Of a DNA stretch of 17,977 bases, positions 2,577 through 14,005 are shown piece after piece. Positions within the stretch are counted from its first letter, which is position 1; each line of letters begins with the position of its first letter. The stretch is from Spirochaetaceae bacterium. Its GTDB lineage: Bacteria > Spirochaetota > Spirochaetia > Treponematales > Breznakiellaceae. The stretch is from NCBI GenBank assembly GCA_031257255.1, contig JAIROZ010000119.1:1-17977 (forward strand), given 5' to 3'. The notes under the pieces are model-generated. The model was not told the origin of the DNA and did not search any database. It saw nothing but the letters and a program-made list of their open reading frames with translations. Made by a program: the position numbers and the translations under genes.

Positions 2577-2604
2577 TTGACAATTTATTACTTTGTGCTA
2601 TACT
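2577..2604 (+). promoter_or_regulatory. Near-consensus sigma70 promoter: TTGACA, a 16-nt spacer, and an extended -10 TGcTATACT
   Basis: Read directly from the sequence: TTGACA at 2577-2582, TG at 2596-2597, and TATACT at 2599-2604. Confidence 0.6.
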
Positions 2605-2630
2605 AAAAATGGGCGGGGAAATCTTATTAC

Positions 2631-2636
2631 AAGGAG
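2631..2636 (+). promoter_or_regulatory. Shine-Dalgarno AAGGAG, 7 nt upstream of the ATG at 2644
   Basis: AAGGAG at 2631-2636 is followed by the spacer ttctagt and then ATG at 2644-2646. Confidence 0.6.
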
Positions 2637-2643
2637 TTCTAGT

Positions 2644-4379
2644 ATGGCTTACAGAAACTTCAAAATGAACACTGCGGCGAGGTGCCGCAGCGCGGGACAG
2701 GACGCGGGGAGACGTTCCAGTCATCTTTGTAGAGCGGCTTTACGCCGTTTAATTTTTAACGGGGGGGGGGGGGTATATTAGCCCTTTTTCTAGCCTTGCC
2801 GTTAATAGTATCGTGCAGTGTGGAGGAGGACGAAACGTCGAATTCGGCTAATTCCCCGTCTTTACTCACGGACATCAAAGTTACCGTTACTGCGGGAAAA
2901 GCCGGTAATATCCTGGAATGGGTGCCTGTAGAAGGGGCGGTAACTTACACTGTTTCCCGTAGAGAAAGCGCGTCCACGACCTCTACAAAAGTAACCGGTA
3001 CGCCCGCCAAGACAGTAAAAGAAGGGGTTGAAGTATGGACTCTCGTCGATACTGTAGGCGACAGAAACCAGCTCAATTCCAATGCCGCGTATACTTACAC
3101 GGTAGAAACAAAGATTGGAACGGCTACCGTAAAAGGTGAAGCAGGCGTTACCACTGCCGGGTTGCTGCCTAAAGGTACAAAGTTCGCAGCCCCGGATGCT
3201 GTTGAATTTCAACTTAACAAAGAGACATGGAAGATAACTGTTACCGTTACGCCGCCTGCCGATGGCAACACCGCGCTTGAATACGAGGTAAAGGTTCAAA
3301 ATCCAGACAATCCAGACAAAACCAAATTCGCCGCTTCGGGAACTGTAACCGCTGCTAATTTAACGGCGGAACTTGACTGGAACTATACGATTGACGGACC
3401 TCTTACCGCAACCGCAACCGCAAAATCTCCCAGTACCTACTATATTGCAAGCGGGGCTGTTTCCAGCCAGCCGCAGCCTTTTACGGCGCTGTTTACCGTA
3501 AAAGACGTTCTTAAAGGAGAACTCGAAAAAGAGCCGGCTATAATAGTGGGGAATGACGGACTGCCTACAACCGACCCGCCTACAGCGGAGAATTTATCCG
3601 CTACTCTTGACTTTACTACCATCGGCGCAAAATCCGGTGTTACTTACACTTTTGAGCGGGCAAAAAAAAGAGAGGACGGCACTTTTGACGCCTATGCGGC
3701 AGTTGAATTCAAGGTAAAAGAACTTGATACAGAAAATTCGACAGACACAGATACCATATATCTGTACACTCCGTTCGATACAACCAGCATAACCGAACTG
3801 TTAATCAAAATGGATACCGACTCTCATATCTACGACCGCACTCTTCCCAAAGAAAGCGGAGTGTACCGCTACCGCGTTACCGCCGAAAAAAATACCGAAA
3901 AACAGTCTAAGGAGTCCGGCGAGGTAAATGTAGACATAAAAGAATTTGTTATTGGACAAATAGAGGTAACTAAAGGTACAAACATCTTTACTTTTAAGCC
4001 TTCTGTAAAGTACGCCGGTATATTGGGCGAAAATGACAAACTCAGTATTAAATGGATACGCGGACCCGCTGACAGTTTTAATAAAGACGATGGTTCCTCA
4101 AGGCTGGACTTTGCCAATACCGACTTGGATGACCCGACTAGCGCGACCGCTACGCAGGAAACATCTACGCTCCCGTCAAACACCGGCTCCGGCGCAAAAC
4201 AATCGCTTTTTGCGCGGGCATACCTTATTTTTGAGGACGGCGCTTTTGTCAATATAAGCGACACCAGCAATCTAAAATGGGTTAAGACCGTAACGACAGG
4301 CATAGCAGGTATCAAGTCAATATCATCCTACAAAAATAAAACAGAAGGCGATGTTTACTACGCCACGCTGGATTATTAG
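2644..4379 (+). CDS. Surface lipoprotein with fibronectin-III-like repeats, whose reading frame is interrupted at a poly-G tract. As sequenced, a 45-aa leader frame (2644-2781) and the 527-aa body (frame of 2796-4379) are out of register.
   Basis: The strong promoter, SD and ATG read 39 codons into a G13 tract and stop at 2779-2781. Immediately after the tract, in the adjacent frame, lie a hydrophobic h-region and lipobox (ILALFLALPLIVSC) and a long Thr-rich ORF with repeated W-x-P/Y-x-V/Y-x-Y FN3-like motifs (e.g. ILEWVPVEGAVTYTVSR). The body frame has no ATG or GTG start; the only candidate is a TTG at 2796, inside the lipobox. Tract lengths of G11 or G14 would fuse the two frames. Confidence 0.6.
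2761..2773 (+). repeat. A homopolymeric G13 tract, a slipped-strand mispairing (contingency) site within the 5' coding region
   Basis: There are thirteen consecutive G residues at 2761-2773, flanked by C on the 5' side and T on the 3' side. This is by far the longest homopolymer in the window. Confidence 0.9.
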
Positions 4380-5397
4380 ATTCGCATTTCTCCTTACCCT
4401 CCCTCTCGCGTCTTGCGGGAGGGAGGACATTTCAAAAACTTCTTTTTCCTTTGGCACAGTTTGCAATATCCGCGTCTACGAAAGACTGAACGCCGCCGCG
4501 CTTGACGCTGTTTTTGAACGCCTTGCTCAAATTGAACGCTTGTTCAGCCCGAATATTCCCGAAAGCGATATATCAAAAGTCAACAGTAACGCCGGCATAG
4601 CGCCGGTGCCGGTATCAAACGAAACTGCCTTTGTGCTAAAGGCGGCGCTTAGGACGGCGGAACTTTCCGGCGGCGCGTTCGACCCCAGCATTGGACCGCT
4701 GGTCAAACTTTGGGGCATAGGCACAGATAACGAGAGAATTCCTCTAGACGATGAAATTGCCGCCGCCCTTGCTCTCGTCGACTGGCGGCGTGTTCATATT
4801 GACCAAAGCCCTGCTGACGGCAGCGCCGTGGCTTCCGAATCGGTATTTCTGGAAACCGCCGGTATGGCGCTCGATTTGGGGGCTATAGTTAAGGGCTATG
4901 CGGCGGACGAGGCTGCGCGGATGCTGCGGGATGCGGGTGTACAACGCGCCATCATCGACTTTGGCGGCAACATAGCGGCGCTTGGTCAAAAACGGCACGG
5001 CGGGCTTTCCCCGCGAGAAGAGCCCTGGCGCATAGGTATTCAGAATCCCTCAGAGAGGCGCGGCGTCTATGCCGCCGTTATTCCTTGCGCGGATGCTACT
5101 CTTGTTACAAGCGGCATATATGAGCGCTTTTTTGAAAGCGATGACAAACGCTACCACCACATACTTTCAACCAAAACCGGATACCCGGCAGATAATGAAC
5201 TCGCGTCAGTTACGATAATAATGCCCTTAGCGGGGCATGGCGCGGCGGCGGGTGCCCTGTACGCTTCGATGACGGCGGATGCGCTTTCCACTACGGTTTT
5301 TGCGTTGGGGCGCGAAGAAGGAGAGCGCTTTCTTAAAGCAAACTACCCGGACGCGGACTCCGTTTTTATCCTGAAAACCGGCGAAATCATAAGGTAG
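4351..5397 (+). CDS. apbE: ApbE-family FAD:protein FMN transferase lipoprotein
   Basis: The N-terminus has a lipoprotein signal (LTLPLASC). ApbE motifs are present: AIVKGYAADEAA, GGNIAALG, WRIGIQNP and YHHILSTKTGYP. The start overlaps the 3' end of the upstream lipoprotein gene by 29 nt. Confidence 0.8.
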   Translation: MFTTPRWIIRFAFLLTLPLASCGREDISKTSFSFGTVCNIRVYERLNAAALDAVFERLAQIERLFSPNIPESDISKVNSNAGIAPVPVSNETAFVLKAALRTAELSGGAFDPSIGPLVKLWGIGTDNERIPLDDEIAAALALVDWRRVHIDQSPADGSAVASESVFLETAGMALDLGAIVKGYAADEAARMLRDAGVQRAIIDFGGNIAALGQKRHGGLSPREEPWRIGIQNPSERRGVYAAVIPCADATLVTSGIYERFFESDDKRYHHILSTKTGYPADNELASVTIIMPLAGHGAAAGALYASMTADALSTTVFALGREEGERFLKANYPDADSVFILKTGEIIR

Positions 5398-5429: not shown

Positions 5430-6116
5430 ATGGACAATAAAAATCCGCCGGCTCTAACTATGGTCGCCACACCTATAGGCAATCTGGGGGACATTACGGC
5501 GCGGGCGCTGGATGCGCTAAAAAATGCCGGGCTTATCGCTTGCGAGGACACACGCCGCACTCTTGCCCTGTTGACACATTTTAATATCAAGGCTAGACTT
5601 ACCTCGTGCAGACAGGCAAACGAAAACGCCGCCGCAGCCGCCGTTATCGCGGCGCTTAAAGCGGGCGAGAATGTTGCCTATGTGTCCGATGCGGGAACTC
5701 CGGGGCTTAGCGACCCTGGGTCTAGGCTGGCGCGGCATGTTCACGAGGCGGGTTTTCCGGTTATTCCGGTGCCTGGTCCTTCAGCATTTGCCGCTTTGCT
5801 CAGCGTTGCGGGCGCAGCCGACAAAACAGTTGTGTTTGAGGGATTTTTATCTCCTAAACAAGGGCGGCGTCAGGCGCGGCTCAAAGAATTGCTGGATTTT
5901 GGCGCGGCTTTCGTTCTTTACGAATCGCCTTACCGGATTCTTAAACTTTTTGAGGGCTTGAACATACTCGCTCCAGTACGCTATTGTTGTGTCGGGCGGG
6001 AAATGACTAAACTGCATGAAGAGTATTTGCGCGGCAGCGTAGAGCAGGTTTACAAAAGCCTTCTTTCTGCCGAAAAACAGTTAGGCGAATTTGCCGTTTA
6101 TGTTTCAGGCAGGTAG
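5430..6116 (+). CDS. rsmI: 16S rRNA (cytidine1402-2'-O)-methyltransferase RsmI (tetrapyrrole-methylase fold)
   Basis: The N-terminus carries VATPIGNLGDIT..RAL..L and ...CEDTR; the central region carries YVSDAGTPGLSDPG and PGPSAF. These are classic RsmI signatures. Confidence 0.8.
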   Translation: MDNKNPPALTMVATPIGNLGDITARALDALKNAGLIACEDTRRTLALLTHFNIKARLTSCRQANENAAAAAVIAALKAGENVAYVSDAGTPGLSDPGSRLARHVHEAGFPVIPVPGPSAFAALLSVAGAADKTVVFEGFLSPKQGRRQARLKELLDFGAAFVLYESPYRILKLFEGLNILAPVRYCCVGREMTKLHEEYLRGSVEQVYKSLLSAEKQLGEFAVYVSGR

Positions 6117-11650: not shown

Positions 11651-13996
11651 ATGACCGTCAGCATAGGGGATAATAGATTTGATATGCCGGTAGAACAGTA
11701 CACCGAATCCATAGTCTTGCGGGAAATGAAATGCGTGCCGGGCGAAAATGACTTTGGCTTTTGTTTTCCGCAGGGGGATGTCCCGCAGATAGATAAAGGC
11801 GAAGACGGCGCGGCGGTTAATGGCAAAGCGAAGCCGGAGTATTTAATTACATTTAATAAAAAGCCCGCCGTAATTATAGTTGTTGAATGTAAAAGAACGG
11901 CGGCGAAACATATTTCCGAAAAATTGGATAGACCCAAAGATTACGCGGTTGACGGCGTTTTGTATTACGCGAAGTTTTTAAAAGATGACTATAATGTTAT
12001 CGCTCTTGCGGTGTCCGGCACAAAAAAGGACAGTATAAGAGCCAACGCATATTATTGGCAGAAGGGGCGCGAAGAATACACAGAAATAAAAAAAGCCCGC
12101 GATATTATCTACGAGCCGGAAAATTATCTGCGGCTTGTGTCGGGCGAGGCGGTAAAAAAAGCGGTGTCAATTCAAGAGATACAGGAACTCGCGCTTGAAA
12201 TGCACGAATCGCTTCGCGGACTGTCGGTAACGGAACGGGCAAAGCCTGTATTCATTGCTGGAATTTTGATTGCCTTAAAAGATGAAGATTTTGTAAAGGA
12301 ATATCCTAATCTTGTTTCGTTTAATTCACTGCTTAACCGTCTGCAATACGCCATAAGTAATGTTCTTGAAAACAGCGATGTTCGTAAAGATAAAATAAAA
12401 GATATTAAAAGCCAATTTGACCGCATTGGTAGAATAGAAAAACTAAAGAATATACCTCTAGGTCATTACAATTCTCTTTTGTGGTATATTGAAAAACTCG
12501 AAAAAAAGATTAAACCGATGATGGATTTTGCTGATAACACCATTGACGCATTGGGTATTTTCTATCACGAATTTGTAAAATATTCAGGCGGAGACGGGAG
12601 CGGACTTGGAATTGTTTTAACTCCGCAGCATTTAACGGAATTCATGTGTGATTTAGCGGAAGTCAACAAGAATAGCAAGATTGTAGATATATGCTGCGGT
12701 TCAGGAACATTCCTTGTTACCGCGATGAGCAAAATGTTCAAGGGCGCAAACGATAAAGACATTGCGCGTATACGCAATGAATCGCTTTTTGGCATTGAAA
12801 GTAATGATGAAATATATACGCTTGCTGTGGCAAACATGATTGTGCGTGGAGATGGAAAATCAAATATTATTTTTGGCGATTGTTTTAAGCAAAACATTAT
12901 TGATGAATTAAAACAAAAAAACATTAACATAGGCTTAATAAATCCGCCGTATTCTCAAGATATAACCGAACTTGAATTTGTCGAGAATATGCTTGACATT
13001 TTAACTACCGGCGGAACCGGCGTTGTGGTTGTGCCTATGTCCTGCGCTATTGGTACTAAATCAAAAGAAACGCGCTTACGGCTTTTTAAGAAACATACAT
13101 TAAAAGCGGTTTTTTCTATGCCGGATGATATTTTTTATTCAAAAAATGTAAATACAAGTGTTTGCGTAATGGTATGGGAAGCGCATAAACCGCATGACTC
13201 GGCAAAAACAACATTTTTCGGCTACTACAAAGACGATGGTTTTGTTAAGGCAAAAAAACTGGGGCGTATTGACAAGTTCAATAAATGGAAAAGCATCGAA
13301 GATGAATGGCTTAGGCTCTACCGTGAGCGGGAAACCAAAGAAGGAATAAGCGTGAAAAAGTCTGTTGATTGGAACGATGAATGGCTTTGCGAGGCGTATA
13401 TGGAAACGGATTATTCTGTCTTAGCGCAGGAGGATTTTGAATTAACCGTTAGAAAAAATCTTGCTTATCTTATTTTTTCAGGCAAGGCAAATTTAGATAA
13501 TAATAAATTCAAAAATACAAAAAGACAATTTTATGATGTCATGGAATGGGGCGTTTTTAATTTGACAGAATTATTTTCGATTGAACGCGGCGTCCGGCTT
13601 ACAAAAGAAAACCGCATACAAGGTGATATTCCGCTTGCTACAGCCGGTGAAACAAATGAAGGCATATCATCGTATATTTCAAACGATGATATGCAAATTT
13701 ACGCCAATGTATTAACAATAGATATGTTTTGTAATTGTTTTTACCGTGATTATGATTTTGCCTGCGATGATAATATACTGGTTTTATTTCCCAAATTTGA
13801 ATATAACAAGTATGTTTTGCTTTTTATGGCAGCAATTATTGGGGCAGATAAATACCGTTATGCTTACGGCAGACAATACCGGCAAAAGAATTTTCGTGAA
13901 CATAAAATAAAACTCCCTGTAGGTAAAAACAAAATTCCTGACTGGCAATTTATGGAAAATTATATAAAATCATTGCCGTATAGCGAAAAAATATAG
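11651..13996 (+). CDS. Single-polypeptide Type IIG-like restriction-modification enzyme: an N-terminal PD-(D/E)xK nuclease-like domain, an HsdM_N-like helical domain, a gamma-class N6-adenine DNA methyltransferase, and a C-terminal HsdS-like target-recognition domain
   Basis: The AdoMet motif I is VDICCGSGTFLV. The motif IV NPPY is diagnostic of N6A/N4C amino-methyltransferases. GIVLTPQHLTEFMCDL resembles the HsdM FxGxxYTP region. HESLRGLSVTERAKPVFIAGILIALKD follows the HsdM_N pattern. The N-terminus has D...(about 25 aa)...ECK (IIVVECKR), consistent with a PD-ExK catalytic core. The last 220 aa or so resemble a half-HsdS TRD. The gene has markedly lower GC than its neighbours. Confidence 0.65.
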   Translation: MTVSIGDNRFDMPVEQYTESIVLREMKCVPGENDFGFCFPQGDVPQIDKGEDGAAVNGKAKPEYLITFNKKPAVIIVVECKRTAAKHISEKLDRPKDYAVDGVLYYAKFLKDDYNVIALAVSGTKKDSIRANAYYWQKGREEYTEIKKARDIIYEPENYLRLVSGEAVKKAVSIQEIQELALEMHESLRGLSVTERAKPVFIAGILIALKDEDFVKEYPNLVSFNSLLNRLQYAISNVLENSDVRKDKIKDIKSQFDRIGRIEKLKNIPLGHYNSLLWYIEKLEKKIKPMMDFADNTIDALGIFYHEFVKYSGGDGSGLGIVLTPQHLTEFMCDLAEVNKNSKIVDICCGSGTFLVTAMSKMFKGANDKDIARIRNESLFGIESNDEIYTLAVANMIVRGDGKSNIIFGDCFKQNIIDELKQKNINIGLINPPYSQDITELEFVENMLDILTTGGTGVVVVPMSCAIGTKSKETRLRLFKKHTLKAVFSMPDDIFYSKNVNTSVCVMVWEAHKPHDSAKTTFFGYYKDDGFVKAKKLGRIDKFNKWKSIEDEWLRLYRERETKEGISVKKSVDWNDEWLCEAYMETDYSVLAQEDFELTVRKNLAYLIFSGKANLDNNKFKNTKRQFYDVMEWGVFNLTELFSIERGVRLTKENRIQGDIPLATAGETNEGISSYISNDDMQIYANVLTIDMFCNCFYRDYDFACDDNILVLFPKFEYNKYVLLFMAAIIGADKYRYAYGRQYRQKNFREHKIKLPVGKNKIPDWQFMENYIKSLPYSEKI

Positions 13997-14005
13997 AGGC
14001 GTAAA

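Follow-up and report, generated by a model that had tools for sequence, protein, structure and literature searches.

A poly-G tract between the start codon and the lipobox of a spirochaete FN3-like lipoprotein gene as a candidate translational phase-variation switch

A 13-guanine tract inside one lipoprotein gene

We examined a contig of 17,977 nucleotides (JAIROZ010000119.1, hereafter the window) from an uncultured Spirochaetaceae bacterium and found that a lipoprotein gene on its forward strand is divided between two reading frames by a homopolymer of 13 guanines (G13; Table 1). Our favored reading, held with slightly better than even confidence, is that the locus is a translational contingency switch (phase variation) in which the length of the poly-G tract decides whether the lipobox and the protein body are in frame with the ATG at 2644. 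G13 is the sole run of G or C longer than 7 nucleotides (nt) in the window, where runs of G13 or C13 are expected by chance at 3e-4 to 6e-4 per window (base composition or first-order Markov model). Its length also lies above the 7 or more (PMC2193922) or 8 or more (PMC7864442) residues from which such repeats are considered hypermutable.

A first-pass annotation, made from the letters alone, had described a near-consensus extended -10 promoter, an AAGGAG Shine-Dalgarno sequence (SD), and an ATG that opens a 39-codon frame running into the tract and ending at a TAG. All of these elements were read again in the sequence, the AAGGAG lying one base from the position that had been implied. The promoter combines TTGACA (2577-2582), a 16-nt spacer, and TGcTATACT (TG at 2596-2597, -10 at 2599-2604), matching 11 of 12 consensus positions with the extended -10 TG included, and transcription is predicted to start near 2611. 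From the ATG at 2644, frame 1 comprises 45 codons (MAYRNFKMNTAARCRSAGQDAGRRSSHLCRAALRRLIFNGGGGVY). The promoter, the SD, and the ATG all lie in the sole upstream frame that is open through to the tract. Frame 2 is closed by a TAA at 2750-2752, and the TAA directly before the tract in the lipoprotein frame (frame 3) means that no upstream start is possible in that frame.

Past this TAA, frame 3 reads RGGGG followed by ILALFLALPLIVSC (full reading RGGGGILALFLALPLIVSC), has its Cys codon at 2814-2816, and stays open until a TAG at 4377-4379. As had been claimed, neither ATG nor GTG occurs in this frame before the Cys codon; the only start codon of translation table 11 is TTG 2796, which would leave M-PLIVSC. 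The PROSITE-type lipobox pattern [LIV][ASTVI][GAS]C fits IVS-C by inspection, after an uncharged hydrophobic h-region. Alternative starts were also considered. The poly-G tract as an SD mimic for a start at ATA 2775 was rejected because the spacing is 1 nt and no n-region would remain, and starts at ATT 2752, TTG 2796, or GTG 2820 were rejected because they have no SD and leave the signal peptide truncated or absent.

Table 1. Coordinates of the features read or proposed at the lipoprotein locus (window positions).
Feature	Position	Strand	Basis or remark
Sigma-70-type promoter, extended -10 (predicted)	2577..2604	+	read from sequence, promoter scan
Shine-Dalgarno AAGGAG	2631..2636	+	read directly; 7 nt before ATG 2644-2646
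Frame-1 leader, 39 codons	2644..2760	+	proposed to lengthen the signal-peptide n-region when ON
TTA (Leu) codon at family initiator-Met column	2740..2742	+	protein and DNA alignments; about 20 homologues have Met there
TAA stop, lipoprotein frame (frame 3)	2757..2759	+	directly 5' of the G13 tract
G13 tract, proposed slipped-strand switch	2761..2773	+	run count, DNA alignment, simulated lengths
Frame-3 h-region and lipobox ILALFLALPL-IVS-C	2775..2816	+	matches family h-region and lipobox in alignment
TAG terminating the 45-codon product at G13	2779..2781	+	frame translation
Mature lipoprotein body, 520 amino acids	2817..4379	+	Thr-rich, all-beta, tandem FN3-like domains
ApbE-family FAD:protein FMN transferase	4351..5397	+	PF02424, E 6e-86; overlaps lipoprotein open reading frame by 29 nt

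The consequences of tract length were simulated for G9 to G16. The full product was obtained only at G11 (577 amino acids, aa) and G14 (578 aa), in agreement with the first-pass statement that these lengths fuse the two frames and that G12 and G13 do not. Products of 44-46 aa resulted from G10, G13, and G16 (45 aa at G13), and products of 67-69 aa from G9, G12, and G15 (68 aa at G12).

Family evidence was then assembled for both sides of the tract. An exhaustive HMMER search over 1.84 billion cluster representatives yielded 41 proteins. Leaving aside the query's own gene call, the homologues were 26-36% identical to the window protein (36% for the best), and the full-length ones were mostly 500-560 aa long. 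Nearly all of the full-length homologues open with M-K-K-x-x-F-L-K-G-I, followed by an h-region and then [AGS]-C, and this signal-peptide architecture was common to 30 homologues. A C-terminal YYAxLxY motif was found in homologues and window protein alike.

Across the frame change, the window reads L-R-R-L-I-F-N-(G)n-I-L-A-L-F-L-A-L-P-L-I-V-S-C. In the multiple alignment, the frame-1 residues ending in ALRRLIFN were placed on the family n-region, the tract glycines on the conserved Gly of K-G-I, and the frame-3 residues ILALFLALPLIVSC on the family h-region and lipobox. When a profile of the 30 family signal peptides was applied, the frame-1 junction scored 9.6 bits (tract counted as one Gly), while other frames reached about 3 bits or less. 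Alignment of the DNA with six family genes revealed an 11-column all-G insertion in the window at the conserved GG(A/T)-ATA codons. An insertion of 11 nt breaks the frame; one of 9 nt (G11) or 12 nt (G14) would keep it.

Since the sequences on either side of the tract align to a single family despite the change of frame, the two frames are the halves of one lipoprotein gene, as the first-pass annotation had supposed, and the tract lies inside a single open reading frame (ORF) in which length changes shift the frame of the body. Judged from these alignments, the frame split is real and not a chance pattern of open frames. The 527-codon downstream frame contains no stop and keeps all family-invariant residues, and the frameshift is therefore recent or reversible.

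In the proposed mechanism, a hypermutable poly-G tract would have grown from the conserved Gly codon where the n-region of the signal peptide meets its h-region. Transcription would begin from the promoter at 2577-2604 and translation from the ATG at 2644. With 3n+2 guanines (11 or 14), the ribosome would read 4-5 Gly codons into ILALFLALPLIVSC, and the precursor would be exported and lipidated. At other tract lengths, translation would stop after 44-69 codons (45 at G13) and no lipoprotein would be made. Slipped-strand mispairing during replication would shift the tract by one G at high frequency and produce mixed populations of ON and OFF cells, with one tract length in three being ON. The downstream apbE gene would, in OFF cells, lie behind some 1.6 kb of mRNA that is not translated, and ApbE expression may drop as well.

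Weighing the switch against other explanations

The proposal of phase variation advanced by the first-pass annotation stood in part. The anatomy of a contingency locus is present and is backed by homology; on the other side, the tract is absent from the other family genes inspected and the ON signal peptide would be atypically long. This second group of observations, which weighs against the switch, begins with the start of the protein. The ON form must start at ATG 2644, which has the strong SD, or at ATG 2665, because the family Met column is occupied by TTA in the window, and no ATG, GTG, or TTG was found in frame 1 between 2665 and the tract. The lipobox Cys of the ON form would then be residue 57-58 (ATG 2644) or 50-51 (ATG 2665), far beyond the usual signal-peptide length of 15-35 residues and the family norm of 23-30. 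This long signal peptide is the main internal weakness of the switch model. Frame 1 does supply a basic n-region (RAALRRLIFN).

The leader itself adds to these points. Its codon-usage score (2644-2760) was -0.75, compared with 12.7 +/- 5.1 for real 39-codon stretches taken from the genes of the window. This is a deficit of about 2.6 standard deviations below real genes, although the frame was still the best of the six. A 39-codon frame is stop-free by chance in approximately 15% of cases, and the match to the family n-region is only marginal, since 5% of stop-free 14-mers drawn at random from the window do no worse (p ~0.05). The evidence for frame 1 is only moderate. We also considered a conserved 5' leader or upstream ORF, which was suspected from the residues MNT..AAR in the related contig L136, and rejected it because the pairwise DNA alignment was unconvincing.

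The TTA codon at the Met column, the weak coding signal and chance openness of the leader, the long ON signal peptide, and the n-region similarity at p ~0.05 only would all fit a decaying pseudogene, in which the canonical start (Met to TTA) and the frame were lost, the upstream ATG is fortuitous, and no functional ON state exists. We consider such decay distinctly unlikely. A stop-free ORF of 527 codons that keeps every family-invariant residue and is modeled with a predicted local distance difference test score (pLDDT) of about 90 argues against drift, and the near-consensus promoter and strong SD are joined to an ATG exactly in frame with a family-like n-region. In addition, the gene for ApbE, a flavin transferase with a housekeeping role, begins within the 3' end and has no promoter-like site of its own; the transcription unit is therefore probably maintained.

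A further set of observations against the switch concerns the sequence record. The window is an entire metagenome contig from the Joint Genome Institute (JGI) that was deposited also as a contig of a metagenome-assembled genome (MAG), and the count of a 13-nt homopolymer in such a contig may be off by one. That the gene is OFF as sequenced rests on this single-base count. Exact look-ups for a second assembly, using the 519-aa gene calls, the 527-aa TTG form, the 45-aa leader, and the upstream 616-aa protein, gave no match. The sole other contig of the same organism (Logan SRR14710896, L139, reached via ApbE) begins at approximately window position 4317, past the tract.

Searches for the lipoprotein among genome contigs and metagenome contigs recovered no relative, and homologue searches with the fused protein and with the family alignment returned essentially the query alone. 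Nothing closer than 36% protein identity was found in the 1.84 billion representatives or the contig collections. Among relatives, no G or C run of at least 7 was present at the ORF start in six family genes (P0002, P0003, P0006, P0007, P0010, and P0020), which have an ordinary SD and ATG, and the tract was likewise absent from one related gene inspected at the DNA level. Because it is missing from all other inspected family genes, the tract is a lineage-specific rather than a conserved family feature.

These points bear on a second alternative, namely that the homopolymer was miscounted: the tract would really be G14 (or G11) in most cells, the gene would be ordinary and intact, and any switching would be incidental. 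The metagenomic origin of the contig and the lack of an independent assembly among the look-ups favor this explanation, as do the intact and conserved body and the restoration of a 578-aa precursor by one added G. We nevertheless regard it as unlikely. The other genes of the window are intact, A8 and T8 runs included, so the general indel error of the contig is low. Even a modal G14 inside an ORF would be expected to slip at a high rate (PMC2193922, PMC7864442). A miscount would therefore remove only the OFF state as sequenced and not the potential for switching. We rejected an artifact of two-color sequencing chemistry as the source of the G13 run because the tract is internal and homologous coding sequence is coherent on either side of it.

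A third alternative leaves the DNA unchanged. RNA polymerase slippage on G13 or ribosomal frameshifting on the G-rich mRNA would yield a low, fixed in-frame fraction by constitutive recoding. Slippage during the transcription of long homopolymers is well established, chiefly on A/T runs of at least 9 residues, and is less documented on runs of G. The leader RNA (2611-2800) folds at -67.7 kcal/mol and is more stable than shuffled controls (z = -3.2), which would suit recoding, but neither a slippery heptamer nor a downstream stimulatory pseudoknot was identified. A search of the leader RNA against Rfam for riboswitches or known RNAs returned no match at E <= 1, and relatives carry a plain in-frame gene without the tract. 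With no known RNA family and no conserved out-of-frame arrangement in relatives, the usual marks of programmed frameshifting were not found, and we judge recoding to be very improbable. Two structures were noted in the leader: a 7-bp GC hairpin (CUGCGGC-GAGGU-GCCGCAG) at approximately 2672-2690, and a weak terminator-like hairpin with a T-run at 2732-2760, just 5' of the tract.

Lipoprotein body, neighboring genes, and tracts in relatives

The body of the lipoprotein was described in the first-pass annotation as a Thr-rich protein with FN3-like repeats, and this description held. The mature protein contains 14.4% Thr. An AlphaFold2 model built with the family alignment was all-beta, with a mean pLDDT of 80 that rises to approximately 90 across residues 77-577; residues 1-72 were disordered, as expected for a signal peptide and linker. 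When the model was compared with the PDB by Foldseek, tandem fibronectin type III (FNIII) arrays were recovered with E values of 1e-10 to 1e-8 (LAR, contactins, titin, and fibronectin repeats 7-10).

By sequence, a profile search of PDB sequences found fibronectin only, and weakly (E 0.0012). No Pfam model was above threshold, with sub-threshold hits to RibLong (E 0.0026, 19 bits against a cut-off of 27) and YPDG, and NCBIfam gave nothing above its cut-offs. The modeled fold therefore supports a body of tandem FN3-like domains, with no sequence match to fn3 models above the curated threshold. The first-pass annotation further called the gene strongly expressed and its product a surface protein; these are inferences rather than observations, and surface exposure is speculative.

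It was noted that the JGI and NCBI gene calls (MDR0551552.1 / LBG72_05995, "Spirochaetaceae bacterium") are 519 aa long and start at GTG 2820, one codon past the lipobox Cys. Because this start misses the signal peptide, the lipoprotein is recorded as a signal-less hypothetical protein, and the public records of the gene carry no frameshift flag. The locus offers a lesson for annotation, in that genes split by homopolymers are systematically mis-annotated in MAGs.

The overlap of the ApbE gene with the 3' end of the lipoprotein gene was confirmed. ApbE is itself a lipoprotein (MFTTPRWIIRFAFLLTLPLASC) with a signal peptide ending in LASC. A promoter scan of 2605-4351 on the + strand found no promoter-like site before it, and ApbE is probably co-transcribed with the lipoprotein gene. 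The overlap of the ORFs and the lack of a promoter-like site ahead of ApbE make polarity of the switch on ApbE plausible, but from the gene arrangement it can be offered only as speculation. The linkage of the two genes was not conserved: the best ApbE relatives have no lipoprotein homologue beside them and no shared synteny. These relatives reached 47-48% identity in the genome and metagenome collections and came from termite-gut Treponema and Spirochaetaceae MAGs. At only 47-48% identity to termite-gut Treponema MAGs, the host is not established as Treponema.

All other genes of the window were intact, including the HMA-DsbD fusion, ApbE, a methylase, FlgM, a permease, PyrB/PyrI, a GHMP kinase, a restriction-modification (RM) methylase, a racemase, GntR, SPFH, and LuxS, and the contig is therefore not generally ridden with frameshifts. 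The upstream gene (708-2558, 616 aa) is an unusual fusion in which an N-terminal heavy-metal-associated (CopZ-like) domain is joined to a DsbD_2 transmembrane region, with a cupredoxin-like stretch at the C terminus that scores below threshold. The gene stops 19 nt short of the lipoprotein promoter, and no conserved synteny with ApbE was found for it in relatives. Farther downstream, 11651-13996 encodes a 781-aa protein that fuses an N6 DNA methylase to a type I specificity (Methylase_S) domain, within a dip in GC content at 12001-14000 (36-38%, compared with about 50% elsewhere). This stretch is probably a horizontally acquired RM island.

We also assessed G and C tracts in relatives. At the spot homologous to G13, the Gly-Gly codons of an FN3 lipoprotein gene in the termite-gut Treponema MAG TD114a_bin7 (L007) form a G6 run (ctGGGGGGaata; CTG GGG GGA ATA), and other homologues have AGG GGA or GGA GGA. 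The G6 run and the G-rich Gly codons therefore suggest how the G13 tract nucleated.

Additional tracts were observed at other positions. In L007, the FN3 lipoprotein gene with the G6 run (MANKKLCLGGILVLALVFGITIIGC; L007:5763-5846) is preceded at a distance of 183 nt by a C17 run (5564-5580). In L135, a C16 run (66-81) lies 175 nt before P0006; it adjoins an A22 run and the contig end and may be an artifact, the reservation about two-color sequencing chemistry being valid for this run. Contig L136 carries G9 (4717-4725) and C8 (4789-4796) at 284 and 212 nt before P0007. By analogy with the tpr genes of Treponema pallidum, the tracts upstream of P0006 and P0007 could be promoter-type (transcriptional) switches. 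At the 5' end of the Logan contig L137 (1-75), a near-perfect foldback (CCGGCTTATAAGTGGaacaacgtcCCACTTATAAGCCGG) was seen at the point where this contig and the NCBI contig L136 part. The foldback is best explained as an artifact of de Bruijn-graph assembly, not as an invertible element.

Beside other genes, we noted C9 directly after a lipobox in L056 (7139-7147; FTGC-ESGPPPDP), G9 in L013 (98-106, identical to L088 and L089) approximately 85 nt upstream of the lipoprotein MRKSLLLLFILAVCFTGC, C12 immediately after TTGACA in L017 (11944-11955), and C9 upstream of an ApbE lipoprotein gene in L085 (661-669). The recurrence of long G/C tracts close to lipoprotein genes of related spirochaetes counts in favor of the switch. 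Among ApbE-anchored genome loci, four tracts of at least 9 were found in 246 kb of spirochaete DNA and none in 626 kb from other phyla, a comparison that is weak because base composition differs between the two sets.

A broader interpretation, which we put forward tentatively and rate as somewhat unlikely, is that the locus belongs to a phasome shared across a clade of uncultured spirochaetes, probably gut symbionts, in which long G and C homopolymers would control a diversifying repertoire of FN3-type lipoproteins and, at the window locus, would also gate ApbE, an essential periplasmic flavin transferase, by polarity. Such a phasome may operate in two modes, translational for the window gene and transcriptional for the C17, C16, and G9/C8 tracts located 175-284 nt upstream in L007, L135, and L136, and it may also take in the tracts that accompany further lipoprotein genes in L013, L056, and L085. 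The window organism and most retrievable family members came from one series of samples and runs, comprising L134, L135, L140, and L142 (JGI 3300042607-3300042643) and L139, L141, and L143 (SRR14710896/904/922), so the family looks like a diversified repertoire within one habitat type. If the phasome exists, the biology of contingency loci extends from pathogens to mutualistic spirochaetes.

Comparison with known phase-variable systems

If switching at the window locus is real, non-pathogenic, uncultured spirochaetes share the poly-G contingency mechanism of T. pallidum and Neisseria, and phage, protist, or host pressure could be the reason for varying an envelope lipoprotein. Switching would also provide a handle on a completely uncharacterized FN3 lipoprotein family. 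The members of this spirochaete family (P0002-P0041) share with the window protein a length of 500-550 aa, the lipobox, the domain order, and the invariant residues. The homologues (27-36% identity) differ in having a canonical MKK... signal peptide of 23-30 residues and a normal SD.

Simple repeats in the 5' coding region of envelope protein genes are known from several contingency loci, in which they turn expression ON or OFF by frameshift. The hopZ, oipA, and sabA genes of Helicobacter pylori carry CT repeats in the signal-peptide region. The window gene resembles these and the Campylobacter and Haemophilus contingency loci in the position of its repeat; the H. pylori repeat is a dinucleotide, and the protein families differ from that of the window. 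Campylobacter, Haemophilus, and H. pylori possess whole phasomes, whereas only one tract was found in this 18-kb window. Homopolymeric G tracts have been described in Campylobacter and Helicobacter (PMC6321876, PMC2823697).

Within the spirochaetes, the closest comparison is T. pallidum (promoters of tprE/G/J, tprL, and TP0126; intragenic tracts in TP0127/0479/0618), in which poly-G is likewise the variable element and envelope protein genes are affected. Its poly-G tracts vary within strains, the tprL tract ranging over 7-11 G (PMC7864442). Homopolymer indels inside genes have been recorded in TP0127, TP0479, and TP0618 (PMC3373638). Unlike the characterized T. pallidum cases, in which the tract lies in or next to the promoter and acts on transcription, the window tract is inside the ORF, 157 nt downstream of the -10 element (2604) and approximately 150 nt from the predicted transcription start; it would therefore act on translation. 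No other promoter-like site on the + strand was found near the window tract, and the window host is a distant, uncultured Spirochaetaceae bacterium.

The window gene has the design described for pilC of N. gonorrhoeae and N. meningitidis. The pilC tract is a poly-G run in the part of the gene that encodes the signal peptide, and it switches at 1e-2 to 1e-4 (Jonsson et al. 1991, via PMC2193922). In both loci the G tract falls after the start codon and before the signal peptide ends, the frame sets the ON or OFF state, with slipped-strand mispairing as the cause in pilC and the proposed cause in the window, and one length in three is ON. PilC is a pilus-associated adhesin of a proteobacterial pathogen and not a lipoprotein, and its switching was shown experimentally. 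In the window gene, switching is an inference, and the tract follows an unusually long leader of 39 codons, unlike pilC.

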